From Escherichia coli (lineage in GTDB: Bacteria > Pseudomonadota > Gammaproteobacteria > Enterobacterales > Enterobacteriaceae), in assembly GCF_003334385.1 (NCBI RefSeq), contig NZ_QOWN01000099.1: a DNA stretch of 2,537 nucleotides; one strand, 5' to 3'. Below are positions 1-2,537 of the stretch, one piece after another. Below the pieces are notes generated by a model. That model worked only from the letters and a program-made list of their open reading frames with translations. It had not been told where the DNA came from and did no database searches. The position numbers and the translations under genes are program-made. Within the stretch, counting starts at the first letter, position 1. Every line of letters starts with the position of its first letter.

Positions 1-1908
1 CGGACGCTGACGCTCGACCGTGAAATCACGCTGCCATCCTCCGGTACCACGCTGATAAGCCTGGTTGACGGAAGTGGCAATCCGGTCAGCGTGGAGGTTC
101 AGTCCGTCACCGACGGCGTGAAGGTAAAAGTGAGCCGTGTTCCTGAGGGTGTTGCTGAATACAGCGTGTGGGGGCTTAAGCTGCCGACGCTGCGCCAGCG
201 CCTGTTCCGCTGCGTGAGTATCCGTGAGAACGACGACGGCACGTATGCCATCACCGCCGTGCAGCATGTGCCGGAAAAAGAGGCCATCGTGGATAACGGG
301 GCGCACTTTGACGGCGAACAGAGTGGCACGGTGAATGGTGTCACGCCGCCAGCGGTGCAGCACCTGACCGCAGAAGTCACTGCAGACAGCGGGGAATATC
401 AGGTGCTGGCGCGATGGGACACACCGAAGGTGGTGAAGGGCGTGAGCTTTATGCTTCGCCTGACCGTGGCAGCGGACGACGGCAGTGAGCGGCTGGTCAG
501 CACGGCCCGGACGACAGAAACCACATACCGCTTCAGGCAGCTGGCGCTGGGGAACTACAGGCTGACAGTCCGGGCGGTAAATGCGTGGGGGCAGCAGGGC
601 GATCCGGCATCGGTATCGTTCCGGATTGCCGCACCGGCAGCGCCTGTCACTATTGAACTGATACCGGGGTATTTTCAGATAACGGCGGTCCCGAAACTGG
701 CTGTATATGACCCGACGGTGCAGTTTGAGTTCTGGTTCTCGGAAAAGCAAATTATTGATATCAGGCAGGTTGAAACCAGCGCGCGTTATCTTGGTACGGC
801 GCTGTACTGGATAGCCGCCAGTAGCAATATTAAGCCGGGTTATGATTATTACTTTTATATCCGCAGTGTGAACACCGTTGGCAAATCGGCATTCGTGGAG
901 GCTGTCGGTCGGGCGAGCGATGATGCGGAAGGTTACCTGGATTTTTTCAAAGACAAGATAACCGAATCTCATCTCGGCAAGGAGTTGCTGGAAAAAGTCG
1001 ACCTGACGGAGGATAACGCCAGCAGACTGGATGAGTTTTCGAAAGAGTGGAAGGACGCTAACGATAAATGGAATGCCATGTGGGGCGTCAAAATTGAGCA
1101 GACCAAAGACGGCAAACATTATGTCGCGGGTATTGGCCTCAGCATGGAGGACACGGAGGAAGGCAAGCTGAGCCAGTTTCTGGTTGCCGCTAACCGTATC
1201 GCGTTTATTGACCCGACAAACGGGAATGAAACGCCGATGTTTGTGGCGCAGGGCAATCAGATATTCATGAACGACGTGTTCCTGAAGCGCCTGACGGCCC
1301 CCACCATTACCAGCGGTGGCAGTCCTCCGGTATTTTCCCTGACATCAGACGGAAAGCTGACCGCTAAAAATGCGGATATCAGTGGCAGTGTGAATGCGAA
1401 CGCCGGGACGCTCAACAATGTCACGGTAAATGAAAACTGTACGATTAAGGGCATGCTGGAGGCGACTCAGGTCAGAGGTGACTTCGTTAAAGCTGTATCC
1501 AAATCATTTCCGAAACAGGCTGGTACGTGGGGTAATACGGAAACACCAAACGGGACGGTTACAGTCACCATCAGCGATGATCATAACTTTGACCGTCAAA
1601 TCATTATTCCGCCCATTATCTTTAACGGAATAGCGTATAGCGATCCGGGAAGTGGTAATAACCCGGGAGGTACAAGATACACGGGGTATGGTTTTGAAGT
1701 TCGCAAAAACGGTGTATTAATCGCATCCAGAGAAACTAAAGGGGCCATTCCCGGTAGCTACAGTGCGGTTATTGATATGCCGAGTGGCAGGGGAAGCGTC
1801 ACTCTGGAGTTTAAGGTTTTCCATAAAGGCAATCAGCGGGCAGGTAATATCACCGACTGTACGGTGATTGTGACCAAAAAAGCCGCTTCCGGCATCAGTA
1901 TTCGTTGA
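1..1908 (+). CDS. J: Phage tail-tip central fibre / host-specificity protein J, C-terminal ~636 codons (5'-partial; the gene starts upstream of the window)
   Basis: Frame +1 is open from nt 1 to the TGA at 1906-1908. The GTG at 91 reported by the ORF track is internal, since the frame has no stop upstream of it. The translation contains two fibronectin-III-like beta-sandwich segments (e.g. ...[27 protein letters not shown]... and ...[23 protein letters not shown]...). It also contains a segment (...[69 protein letters not shown]...[13 protein letters not shown]...) that I recognise as characteristic of lambda-family J proteins. It ends ...[10 protein letters not shown], whereas lambda J as I recall it ends ...KKQALGISVV. 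Its position immediately upstream of lom matches lambda genome order. Confidence 0.9.
346..915 (+). other. Two tandem fibronectin type III-like (Ig-like beta-sandwich) domains within J (approx. 346-630 and 631-915)
   Basis: Each ~95-aa segment has the alternating hydrophobic beta-strand pattern with a conserved Trp/Tyr core and ends with a Pro/Ala-rich linker ([12 protein letters not shown] at the first boundary). Boundaries are approximate and read by eye from the translation. Confidence 0.45.
1459..1908 (+). other. C-terminal receptor-binding domain of J (distal tip, host-range determinant); allele appears divergent from lambda
   Basis: In lambda-family J proteins the last ~150 aa form the receptor-binding domain. 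Here this segment (...[149 protein letters not shown]) keeps recognisable anchor motifs (DDHxFDRQI, IDMPxGRG, GIS at the terminus) but differs at most other positions from my recollection of lambda J. Hand-counted GC is ~46% in 1501-1620, against ~62% in 1-120. Confidence 0.5.
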
Positions 1909-1929
1909 AATTGTTATAACCCATATAAG

Positions 1930-1956
1930 GGCACCAGAAATGGTGCCTTTTTTATT
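1930..1956 (+). terminator. Rho-independent (intrinsic) terminator downstream of J
   Basis: Perfect 7-bp inverted repeat GGCACCA (1930-1936) / TGGTGCC (1941-1947) with a GAAA tetraloop (1937-1940), followed immediately by TTTTTTATT (1948-1956). It lies 22 nt after the J stop codon. Confidence 0.6.
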
Positions 1957-1977: not shown

Positions 1978-2049
1978 ATGCGTAAACTTTATGCCGCCAT
2001 TTTTTCCGCAGCCATTTGTCTGGCCGTATCCGGTGCGCCTGCATGGGCA
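1978..2049 (+). other. Sec signal peptide of Lom (24 aa, predicted cleavage AWA|SE)
   Basis: N-terminal basic residues (MRK), a hydrophobic core ([14 protein letters not shown]) and an A-x-A signal-peptidase I site (PAWA) before the mature sequence SEHQ. Confidence 0.75.
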
Positions 2050-2537
2050 TCTGAACATCAGTCCACGCTGAGCGCGGGGTATCTTCATGCCTCGACGAAC
2101 GTTCCCGGCAGCGATGATCTGAACGGGATTAACGTGAAATACCGTTATGAGTTTACGGACACACTGGGGCTGGTGACGTCATTCAGCTATGCAGGAGACA
2201 AGAATCGCCAGCTTACCCGTTACAGCGATACCCGCTGGCATGAAGATTCCGTGCGTAACCGCTGGTTCAGCGTGATGGTGGGGCCGTCTGTGCGCGTGAA
2301 TGAATGGTTCAGCGCGTATGCGATGGCGGGTGTGGCTTACAGCCGTATTTCGACTTTCTCCGGGGATTATCTCCGCGTAACTGACAACAAGGGGAAAACG
2401 CACGATGTGCTGACCGGAAGTGATGACGGTCGCCACAGCAACACGTCTCTGGCGTGGGGAGCTGGCGTGCAGTTTAACCCGACCGAATCCGTGGCCATTG
2501 ATATTGCTTATGAAGGCTCCGGCAGTGGTGACTGGCG
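1978..2537 (+). CDS. lom: Lom outer-membrane protein (Ail/Lom/OmpX/PagC family 8-stranded beta-barrel), 3'-partial; runs off the window edge
   Basis: ATG at 1978 preceded by the SD. Hand translation gives [186 protein letters not shown]..., which matches my recollection of bacteriophage lambda Lom almost residue for residue. No stop occurs before the window end, which is why the ORF track omits it. The position directly after J is as in lambda. Confidence 0.92.

Follow-up and report, generated by a model that had tools for sequence, protein, structure and literature searches.

Probable sources of intragenic GC heterogeneity in a lambda-type J gene of Escherichia coli: domain amino-acid composition and a 434-type receptor-binding end

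Phage tail fibre genes are often built from parts, and the question raised by the locus studied here is whether a marked change in base composition within one such gene can be taken as the trace of a fusion. The sequence analysed is a stretch of 2,537 nt of Escherichia coli DNA (contig NZ_QOWN01000099.1 of assembly GCF_003334385.1; hereafter the window), which carries the 3' part of a phage J gene. A previous sequence-only reading of this DNA had obtained, from hand counts, GC contents of about 62, 48 and 46% in three samples along J, and had proposed that segments of different evolutionary origin had been fused into a single fibre protein. The counts were accurate, since nt 1-120, 721-840 and 1501-1620 have computed values of 62.5, 48.3 and 45.0%, respectively, and the strong heterogeneity was also confirmed. 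The single maximum-likelihood GC change point in nt 1-1908 is located at nt 644, with 62.9% GC to its left and 49.4% to its right, and its LLR of 15.8 exceeds the maximum of 9.3 reached when the codons of this ORF were shuffled 500 times (mean 2.9, sd 1.4). Recursive segmentation of nt 1-1908 gave no second raw-GC split at LLR > 8, while GC3 was found to drop in two stages, from 0.72 (nt 1-660) to 0.61 (nt 661-1260) and then to 0.51 (nt 1261-1908). Most of the contrast between the hand-counted samples comes from the nt 644 step; the third sample falls instead within a cassette that, as described below, is exchanged among phages.

The identity of the gene is clear. Reading frame 1 runs uninterrupted from the first nucleotide to its stop codon at nt 1906-1908 and matches residues ~503-1137 of a J of the 434 type, which has 1137 aa; in the closest relative J is full length, with 1137 aa. 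Because the window begins at J residue ~503, only the end of the N-terminal baseplate-hub region (residues 1-~600) is included. A phmmer comparison of the product with lambda gpJ (PDB 8iyk) gave E = 0, with query residues 1-634 aligned to residues 503-1131 of 8iyk_J, and the Pfam domain series of lambda-type J is complete (Ig_J, Ig_J_second, Phage_Tail_Tip and Ig_GpJ_C, all with E <= 1e-25). The features identified are listed in Table 1, where the names alpha-helical shaft and central straight fibre follow previous usage for gpJ regions (PMC11101478). Identity is 99.2% to a prophage of E. coli SCU-104 and 96.9% to the J-lom region of phage Perceval. The gene order L-K-I-J-lom-stf is found in the SCU-104 prophage, in Perceval and in phage 434, and lom is also located 3' of J in the window. 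The intergenic region between J and lom (nt 1909-1977) has a GC of 0.36, and phage 434 has a terminator annotated at the place homologous to the hairpin found there.

Table 1. Features of the window, with their coordinates, the basis for their assignment and their base composition.
Feature	Position (nt)	Strand	Basis	Composition
J gene, 3' part (tip attachment protein / central tail fibre)	1-1908	+	Frame 1	
Ig_J (FNIII-1), GC-rich block	322-636	+	Pfam PF24421, aa 108-212, E 2.3e-42	GC 0.64, GC12 0.60, GC3 0.74
Raw-GC change point (nt 644), AAPAAP/VTIEL linker between two Ig/FNIII-like domains	637-651	+	LLR 15.8	
Ig_J_second (FNIII-2), AT-richer block	640-948	+	Pfam PF24489, aa 214-316, E 3.6e-38	GC 0.50, GC12 0.47, GC3 0.55; K, I, F, Y, N abundant
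Short minority-allele tract	645-760	+	Mismatch map and alignment; among references common only to SCU-104 prophage	GC 0.448 (0.50-0.53 in other alleles)
Phage_Tail_Tip (alpha-helical shaft and gpJ central straight fibre)	1030-1410	+	Pfam PF09327, aa 344-470, E 3.6e-33	GC 0.53, GC3 0.65; codon usage normal (z +0.9 / -0.9)
Conserved island (16 protein letters), same as lambda	1349-1401	+	Alignment	
434-type receptor-binding cassette (distal fibre and Ig_GpJ_C)	1402-1908	+	Pfam, identity break, codon-residual change point	GC 0.477; GC3 0.485 (0.61 expected)
Ig_GpJ_C	1495-1902	+	Pfam PF12421, aa 499-634	
Intrinsic-terminator-like hairpin followed by T run, between J and lom	1927-1950	+	Terminator scan	
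lom, 5' 560 nt (Ail/Lom outer-membrane protein), cut by window end	1978-2537	+	Lom annotated under match in all relatives	GC 0.556, GC3 0.61 (normal)

The step at nt 644 coincides with a domain boundary, between the end of Ig_J at aa 212 and the start of Ig_J_second at aa 214. A step at the same residue (IELTPG/YFQITA, J aa ~718-725) was found in lambda, 434, Perceval, ev017 and Stx1_699, the last of which shares it in spite of having a J protein only 55% identical to that of the window. The detailed analysis covered only eight lambda-type J genes, and the step scan six of this type, i.e. the window and these five relatives. The sequence-only reading had itself named a profile common to all lambda-family J genes as one of two outcomes that would speak against mosaicism, and for the main step this is what was observed in all six genes scanned. 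In simulations that kept the amino-acid sequence, the expected step between segments A and B, on either side of nt 644, was 0.093 +/- 0.015, versus 0.122 observed; amino-acid composition accounts for ~75% of the step in the window, and for 75-80% across the window, lambda and Stx1_699. The GC of segment B is 0.506, and 0.507 is expected from its amino acids with lambda late-gene codon usage. The remaining ~25% of the step (0.03, z ~2.0-2.3) lies beyond the amino-acid prediction, and Ig_J_second is AT-shifted at the codon level with respect to J's own N-terminal codon table (z -3.3 in the window and about -2 in lambda, 434 and Perceval). There may be a small component of ancestry or selection at this boundary.

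Throughout lambda-type J genes GC12 is higher in Ig_J (0.58-0.60) than in Ig_J_second (0.47-0.50). The order was the same in four of the six distant homologues and the opposite in the other two (Erwinia 49 and Klebsiella KLB29), so that the contrast does not hold for the fold in general, and the agreement in sign of the four is suggestive but not decisive. No change point was found at the homologous place in distant J genes with another architecture (Serratia OS31, Erwinia 49, Morganella IME1369_01, HK542 and Klebsiella KLB29), nor in the rV5 fibre. The tblastn alignments with HK97-like J proteins (query aa 1-346/403) and with rV5-like fibres (aa 165-489) span residue 214, and lambda, 434 and Perceval are 90-100% identical to the window on either side of nt 644, the sole discontinuity being a private tract of 116 nt. 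The presence of the step in five other J genes, along with the distant alignments across nt 644, indicates an effect of domain composition and not a fusion joint: apart from the private tract there is no identity discontinuity at this position among relatives, and the step is not lineage-specific and is for the most part accounted for by amino acids. As a mark of fusion, therefore, the most conspicuous GC step of this gene does not hold.

The private tract (nt 645-760) has 27 differences with respect to the consensus of seven lambda-type alleles, 14 of them AT-ward and 5 GC-ward. In E. coli genomes it is present with at least 99% identity in 4 records, with 95-99% in 200 and with 80-90% in 3929. 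Being AT-shifted, it sharpens the nt 644 step a little.

At the 3' end of J the evidence points in the other direction. When the contribution of amino acids was removed, the sole change point in codon usage was located at codon 488 (nt ~1464), where |t| (4.8-5.0) exceeded the maximum of the null. SCU-104, Perceval and 434 also have this residual change point, at J codon 990-993, which lambda (|t| 2.5, with the null 95th percentile at 3.16) and Stx1_699 lack. The 3' segment (segment C) has a GC of 0.477, below the 0.526 +/- 0.012 that its amino acids predict (z -4.1; z -6.6 when J's own N-terminal codon table is used). In the C-terminal Ig domain the window has a GC3 of 0.46, compared with 0.62 in lambda and 0.69 in Stx1_699. 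Identity to lambda falls from 94% to 47% at the cassette, and the maximum chi-square break (551) was placed at nt 1445, before which divergence is 0.057 and after which it is 0.529. Beyond the conserved island at nt 1349-1401 the alleles diverge, and this last identical stretch is likely the crossover zone for homologous recombination; it corresponds to the 'insertion point' defined at lambda gpJ aa 964 (PMC11338833).

The receptor-binding domain (RBD) alleles form discrete classes, with 74 records at 92.9% identity or above and 169 at 39-47%, and that of the window belongs to the 434 class, with 96% amino-acid identity in Ig_GpJ_C and 91% nucleotide identity to 434. The cassette is 99.0-99.4% identical to Stx2c/Stx1a-converting phages (99.4%) and cdtI. 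The best relatives vary along J, being first lambda/DE3-type, then Perceval/434 and then Stx/cdtI phages, and in a ten-sequence alignment Perceval shows 0-1 mismatch per 60 nt over nt 1621-1860. Mosaicism in J is real. All named relatives of the 434-type RBD are from Escherichia or Shigella, many of them partial sequences, and no lower-GC donor for it was found by tblastn against phages or in a search of 5.8 billion proteins. Both the identity edge and the synonymous-site shift identify nt ~1402-1908 as a horizontally exchanged mosaic module, which is the known host-range cassette. Lambda's J allele binds LamB. The 434 J is reported to redirect lambda to OmpC (PMC11101478) and, judging from the 96% protein identity to phage 434, the J allele of the window probably binds OmpC as well.

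Taken together, these data made us consider it probable that the GC heterogeneity of J has two unrelated causes, the amino-acid composition of the domains on either side of nt 644 and an exchanged receptor-binding end of the 434 type. Most of the nt 644 step is set by protein sequence, because the GC content of the codons for the residues of the two domains differs: Ig_J is rich in Ala, Arg, Val, Thr and Gly, with GC-rich codons, and Ig_J_second in Lys, Ile, Phe, Tyr and Asn, with AT-rich ones. The step would have been inherited by every lambda-type J gene, with nt 645-760 as a putative recombined minority-allele tract adding slightly to it. The last ~500 nt, in turn, would be a cassette swapped among lambdoid phages by homologous recombination via the island at nt 1349-1401, and the synonymous sites of this receptor-binding end, far richer in AT than those elsewhere in J, probably reflect a separate evolutionary history. 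The idea of a fusion is in this way supported in part, for the 3' end (with the break versus lambda at nt ~1445 and the codon-level AT shift) and not for the nt 644 step, that is, at another coordinate and for a feature that was already known.

An origin of its own for each of the GC blocks (~62, 48 and 46%), with nt 644 as the joint between foreign modules, seems unlikely to us. Such an origin could be argued from the exact position of the step on a domain boundary, from the quarter of it that exceeds the amino-acid prediction, from the private recombined tract beginning precisely there, from a codon-level change point nearby (J codon 688) in ev017 and PhiR55, and from the demonstrable mosaicism of J elsewhere. 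However, identity to lambda, 434 and Perceval is unbroken at nt 644 save for the 116-nt patch, the step is kept down to 55% amino-acid identity, the GC of segment B is exactly as its amino acids predict under lambda late-gene codon usage, and lambda lacks a codon-level change point; besides, the boundary is spanned by alignments to myovirus fibres and to very distant J proteins, which argues that the two domains travel together. The opposite extreme, in which protein constraint alone generates all the heterogeneity, including that of the 3' end, and mosaicism plays no part, is very unlikely. It would be in agreement with the share of the main step explained by amino acids in the window, lambda and Stx1_699, and with a profile that is common to the clade up to nt ~1400, but it is contradicted by the codon-level test at nt ~1400-1908, where segment C is predicted to be GC-richer than B (0.526 versus 0.507) and is poorer (0.477; z -4.1 to -6.6). 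Homologous RBD alleles with a GC3 of 0.62-0.69 (lambda, Stx1_699) versus 0.46 in the window, the sharp identity break and the discrete allele classes also stand against it.

With respect to the receptor-binding end, its low GC3 could alternatively result from selection or relaxed selection and not from foreign ancestry, the candidates being poorer codon adaptation in a region that evolves fast and diversifies, and slow-translation codons aiding the folding of the trimeric tip. The variable distal blocks examined all tend to be AT-shifted (z -4.2 to -4.9 in the mid block of ev017/PhiR55 and -3.7 to -5.8 in the C-ends of these two), even the lambda C-end reaches z -2.9 versus J's N-terminal table, and the searches mentioned above provided no donor outside Escherichia/Shigella. 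We nonetheless find this improbable, given that alleles differ in how large the shift is at one structural position (GC3 0.46 versus 0.62 and 0.69), that it begins at the break in sequence identity and that in the Stx1_699 C-end z is only -2.0. A further candidate was the edge between the genome-scale GC domains of lambda, the GC-rich left arm and the AT-rich central region, falling in J by chance: the lambda genome splits into halves of differing GC3 (PMC2266997) with J close to where the GC-rich arm ends. When the lambda genome was segmented as a whole, however, the major boundary was placed at 21.6-22.5 kb, outside J, ~4 kb past the J step and after stf/tfa, and GC is back to 0.55-0.61 in lom and stf, with normal values in the window lom (Table 1). 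This cause of the step was ruled out as having a negligible probability.

The two-cause reading can be set against known systems. Lambda gpJ (PDB 8iyk, 8k35, 8xcg, 8xci, 8xcj) is the product of the same gene, also upstream of lom, with the GC step at the same residue and the domain order hub, FNIII-1, FNIII-2, alpha-helical shaft, central straight fibre and RBD in common with the window, from which it diverges by 5.7% at the nucleotide level over nt 1-1445. It differs in the last ~165 residues, which are another allele (39% amino-acid identity in Ig_GpJ_C) with a normal GC3 (0.62), and in the lom allele. The J of phage 434, that of the 'lambda h434' host-range hybrid, is alike in its 1137-aa length, in having a low GC3 (0.46) and in its residual change point (J codon 993), and differs by ~10% nucleotide divergence over nt 1381-1800, the closest relatives of the window RBD being the Stx2c/Stx1a-converting phages and cdtI. 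Engineered and natural gpJ chimeras (A8, 1A2; Brodel et al., Nature 2024; PDB 9wca/9wcb) also consist of a lambda-type body and another C-terminal RBD joined at the last conserved stretch; functional chimeras were joined at lambda aa 964 (PMC11338833), and the natural joint in the window is at nt ~1386-1445. The A8 RBD aligns over the whole 169-residue RBD at 131 bits, versus near-identity within the 434 class, and the window is a natural prophage/phage sequence. The A8 gpJ structure (9wca) was discarded as a direct model of the window RBD, since it belongs to a different allele class. Previous descriptions of lambdoid mosaicism and GC3 landscapes (Juhala et al. 2000; Hendrix & Casjens; Lucks et al. 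2008, PMC2266997) share with this gene the varied nearest relatives, the sharp breakpoints and the codon differences beyond amino acids, although they are at gene or genome scale, whereas the present analysis is intragenic and its most visible step is no mosaic joint. No earlier account of intragenic GC heterogeneity in J was found in the literature, which yielded only GC3 landscapes at genome scale (PMC2266997) and papers on structure or engineering.

A tentative and rather doubtful extension of these results is that the distal host-range modules of lambdoid J might be systematically AT-shifted at synonymous sites with respect to the conserved hub part; the shift is present in the 434-type RBD of the window and in the mid block and RBD of the ev017/PhiR55 type. 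If that were true, RBD cassettes would circulate in a gene pool of their own, wider and richer in AT than that of the phage bodies, or AT-ending codons would be selected, and the intragenic GC3 residual could be used as a sequence-only marker to locate RBD cassettes open to exchange, along with their joints. The practical impact of the results is minor, and the knowledge on the modularity of J and tail fibres is unchanged, but a word of caution can be drawn: a large GC step within a gene may not mark a recombination joint, and here the true joint became visible only after controlling for amino acids. In terms of host-range annotation, this J can be classed as having a 434-type end, probably using OmpC, whose joint lies at the conserved island also exploited in the engineered retargeting of lambda particles.

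Frame 1 stays open from the first nucleotide of the window until a stop codon at nt 1906-1908 and encodes 635 residues of J, the lambda-type tip attachment protein (also called central tail fibre), matched end to end by lambda gpJ residues 503-1131 (PDB 8iyk and others, E = 0). The four Pfam domains of the product match, in order, the gpJ parts described by cryo-EM, i.e. FNIII-1, FNIII-2, the alpha-helical shaft plus central straight fibre, and the receptor-binding domain (PMC11101478). The closest matches to the window are the E. coli SCU-104 prophage (99.2%), phage Perceval (96.9%) and phage 434 (94.6%), and J-lom-like sequence was found in 4942 of 5426 complete E. coli genomes.

Features of the J-lom window
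Feature	Nucleotides	Residues	Remark
Ig_J	322-636	108-212	Pfam
Ig_J_second	640-948	214-316	Pfam
Phage_Tail_Tip	1030-1410	344-470	Pfam
Ig_GpJ_C	1495-1902	499-634	Pfam
Terminator-like hairpin	1927-1950		AAGGGCACCAGAAATGGTGCCTTT then T run; between J and lom
lom, 5' part	from 1978		

Computed GC was 62.5% for nt 1-120, 48.3% for nt 721-840 and 45.0% for nt 1501-1620, close to the hand counts of the sequence-only reading (~62, ~48 and ~46%), which were thus accurate. A likelihood-ratio scan placed a single raw-GC change point at nt 644 (62.9% to its left, 49.4% to its right), and its LLR of 15.8 exceeded the highest value obtained from 500 codon shuffles (9.3); GC heterogeneity in this J is therefore real and beyond chance. 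The comparison was extended to the full J genes of lambda, Perceval, 434, ev017 and the Stx1 phage Stx1_699, whose J protein is 55% identical. In all of them the best change point fell at the identical residue (IELTPG/YFQITA, J aa 723-725), and it was significant in four of the five, the exception being lambda, where it was modest (LLR 6.0, null 95th percentile 4.9). No change point was present at the homologous place in the rV5 fibre or in the distant J of Serratia OS31, Erwinia 49, Morganella, HK542 and Klebsiella KLB29, which have other C-terminal architectures. The occurrence of the step at one residue across lambda-type J genes makes it a property of this clade, and not of the window. The soluble fragments used for gpJ structures ('gpJ713' and 'A8 gpJ 713'; PDB 8xcj/8xck, 9wca/9wcb) start at lambda residue 713, no more than five residues from the GC change point, so that experimenters picked the same domain boundary.

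The contribution of amino acids and codon choice was separated with simulated genes keeping the exact protein sequence of the window, with lambda late genes (4887 codons) as codon reference. Expected and observed GC were 0.600 and 0.628 in segment A (nt 1-645), and 0.507 and 0.506 in segment B (nt 646-1398). Since protein sequence alone predicts an A-to-B step of 0.093 +/- 0.015 and 0.122 was observed, around 75% of it corresponds to amino acid composition, the excess being marginal (z ~2). Val, Thr, Ala, Gly and Arg are abundant in segment A, while Lys, Ile, Phe, Tyr and Asn are more frequent in B. Proportions were similar in lambda (expected 0.080, observed 0.099) and Stx1_699 (0.066 and 0.087). 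Clade-wide, GC at codon positions 1+2 is 0.58-0.60 in Ig_J versus 0.47-0.50 in Ig_J_second, a difference of the same sign being found in four of six distant homologues.

The sequence-only reading had attributed the GC swing to fused segments of different origin, naming beforehand a profile shared among lambda-type J genes as refuting, and for the main step such sharing is what was found. The proposal is therefore partly supported. The step from 62% to 48% is mainly a conserved contrast in amino acid composition between two adjoining domains; the proposal does hold in that J is mosaic, its 3' ~500 nt forming a cassette that has a history and a codon composition of its own. These results fit established knowledge of lambdoid mosaicism and J host-range cassettes, and are in that sense already known.

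In tblastn searches, HK97-like and other distant J proteins align over query residues 1 to ~330-403, and rV5-like myovirus fibres, 9g and PY54 over residues ~132-165 to ~427-495; both sets span residue 214 uninterrupted, which argues that the two Ig-like domains were inherited together across very distant phages. Within reach of these data, the alignments speak against an ancient fusion at nt 644, and neither the mismatch map against nine references nor max chi-square tests revealed a lineage break there. Small but real mosaicism does begin at the FNIII-1/FNIII-2 boundary, as judged from a tract (nt 645-760) private to the window and SCU-104 among the references. Compared with a consensus built from seven lambda-type alleles, it has 27 changes (14 AT-ward, 5 GC-ward, 8 neutral), and its local GC is 0.448 versus 0.50-0.53 in other alleles. 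This is a minority allele: of the ~4200 E. coli records that match, about 200 reach at least 95% identity (4 at ≥99%, 200 at 95-99%, 3929 at 80-90%). The tract resembles the product of a short gene conversion whose donor was an unsampled J lineage, and it sharpens the main step without creating it. A few of its variants are also present in the diverged Stx1_699 J. Lambda has been described as having an AT-rich central region (PMC2266997), and whether the step marks its edge was also considered. This reading was rejected, given that the major GC boundary in the lambda genome falls beyond the side-tail-fibre genes, at 21.6-22.5 kb, and GC is back to 0.55-0.61 in lom and stf, contrary to a genome-scale GC domain.

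Segment-wise BLASTN, proposed in the sequence-only reading, did return different nearest relatives along J: PhiR55_1 (97.8%) and lambda/DE3 (97.2%) for nt 1-644; Perceval and 434 (~94%, with no match reaching 95%) for nt 645-1400; and Stx2c-/Stx1a-converting phages (99.4%) and cdtI (99.0%) for nt 1401-1908, where lambda-type phages match the first ~60 nt only. The break with lambda was mapped by max chi-square to nt 1445 (divergence 5.7% left, 52.9% right), shortly after a perfectly conserved island (nt 1349-1401, encoding 16 residues) at the position of lambda gpJ residue 964, the junction chosen for functional gpJ chimeras (PMC11338833). Breaks in other lineages map to nt ~245 (Stx2c), ~905-926 (PhiR55, ev017) and ~1347 (cdtI). 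The converting phages sharing the receptor-binding end of the window are ~39% diverged over nt 1-245 and ~5% beyond (max chi-square at nt 245), a pattern that points to one more mosaic joint, close to where the hub region ends. In ev017 (L007) and PhiR55_1 (L016), a different middle block (J codons ~690-996, shaft/fibre), 28 residues longer, diverges from nt ~905-926 on.

Codon choice sets the cassette apart. Segment C (nt 1399-1905) has a GC of 0.477 against an expected 0.526 +/- 0.012 (z -4.1, or -6.6 with the N-terminal codon table of J itself as reference). Once the amino acid expectation was subtracted for each codon, the sole change point in the window was codon 488 (nt 1464; |t| 4.8-5.0, exceeding all null replicates), with a matching one at J codon 990-993 in SCU-104, Perceval and 434 that the same scan did not find in lambda or Stx1_699. 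In the C-terminal Ig domain, the window, Perceval and 434 have a GC3 of 0.46, whereas lambda reaches 0.62 and Stx1_699 0.69. Two causes are conceivable for this AT shift: descent from a separate gene pool, or selection acting on the distal part of the fibre. The mid block and C-ends of ev017/PhiR55 are also AT-shifted with respect to the J N-terminus (z -4.2 to -4.9 and -3.7 to -5.8, respectively), so an AT shift may be a general trait of variable distal modules. When 5.8 billion proteins were searched with the 434-type end, matches came only from Escherichia coli, E. albertii and Shigella, with no lower-GC donor lineage among them. Ancestry is nonetheless favoured over selection, since alleles differ in how far they are shifted at one and the same structural position, and the shift starts where identity breaks.

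Over the last 169 residues, the proteins sort into discrete classes: 74 phage records are ≥92.9% identical, another 169 only 39-47%, and no intermediate values occurred. Replacing lambda J with 434 J reportedly changes the receptor to OmpC (PMC11101478); given the 96% protein identity between the C-terminal domains of the window and 434, OmpC would be the predicted receptor here. The phage record MW057783.1 ('Campylobacter phage CJLB-4', 48,361 bp), labelled as a Campylobacter jejuni phage, contains a lambda-type receptor-binding domain at 18329-18817. This domain and that of lambda are both 39.7% identical to the query at nearly the same coordinates, and record length is near that of lambda; it may be lambda DNA under another name, through contamination or mislabelling.

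The J-lom spacer has a GC of 36%, and phage 434 has a terminator annotated at the place matching the hairpin, so that lom, within the late operon, comes after a terminator. The lom allele of the window is carried by Perceval, 434 and Stx2c, and that of lambda is strongly diverged, so receptor-binding and lom alleles appear linked. SCU-104 shows 4 mismatches over nt 1-1980 and clustered differences in lom (8 in nt 1981-2040, 5 in nt 2161-2220), which suggests another small recombination tract inside this gene.
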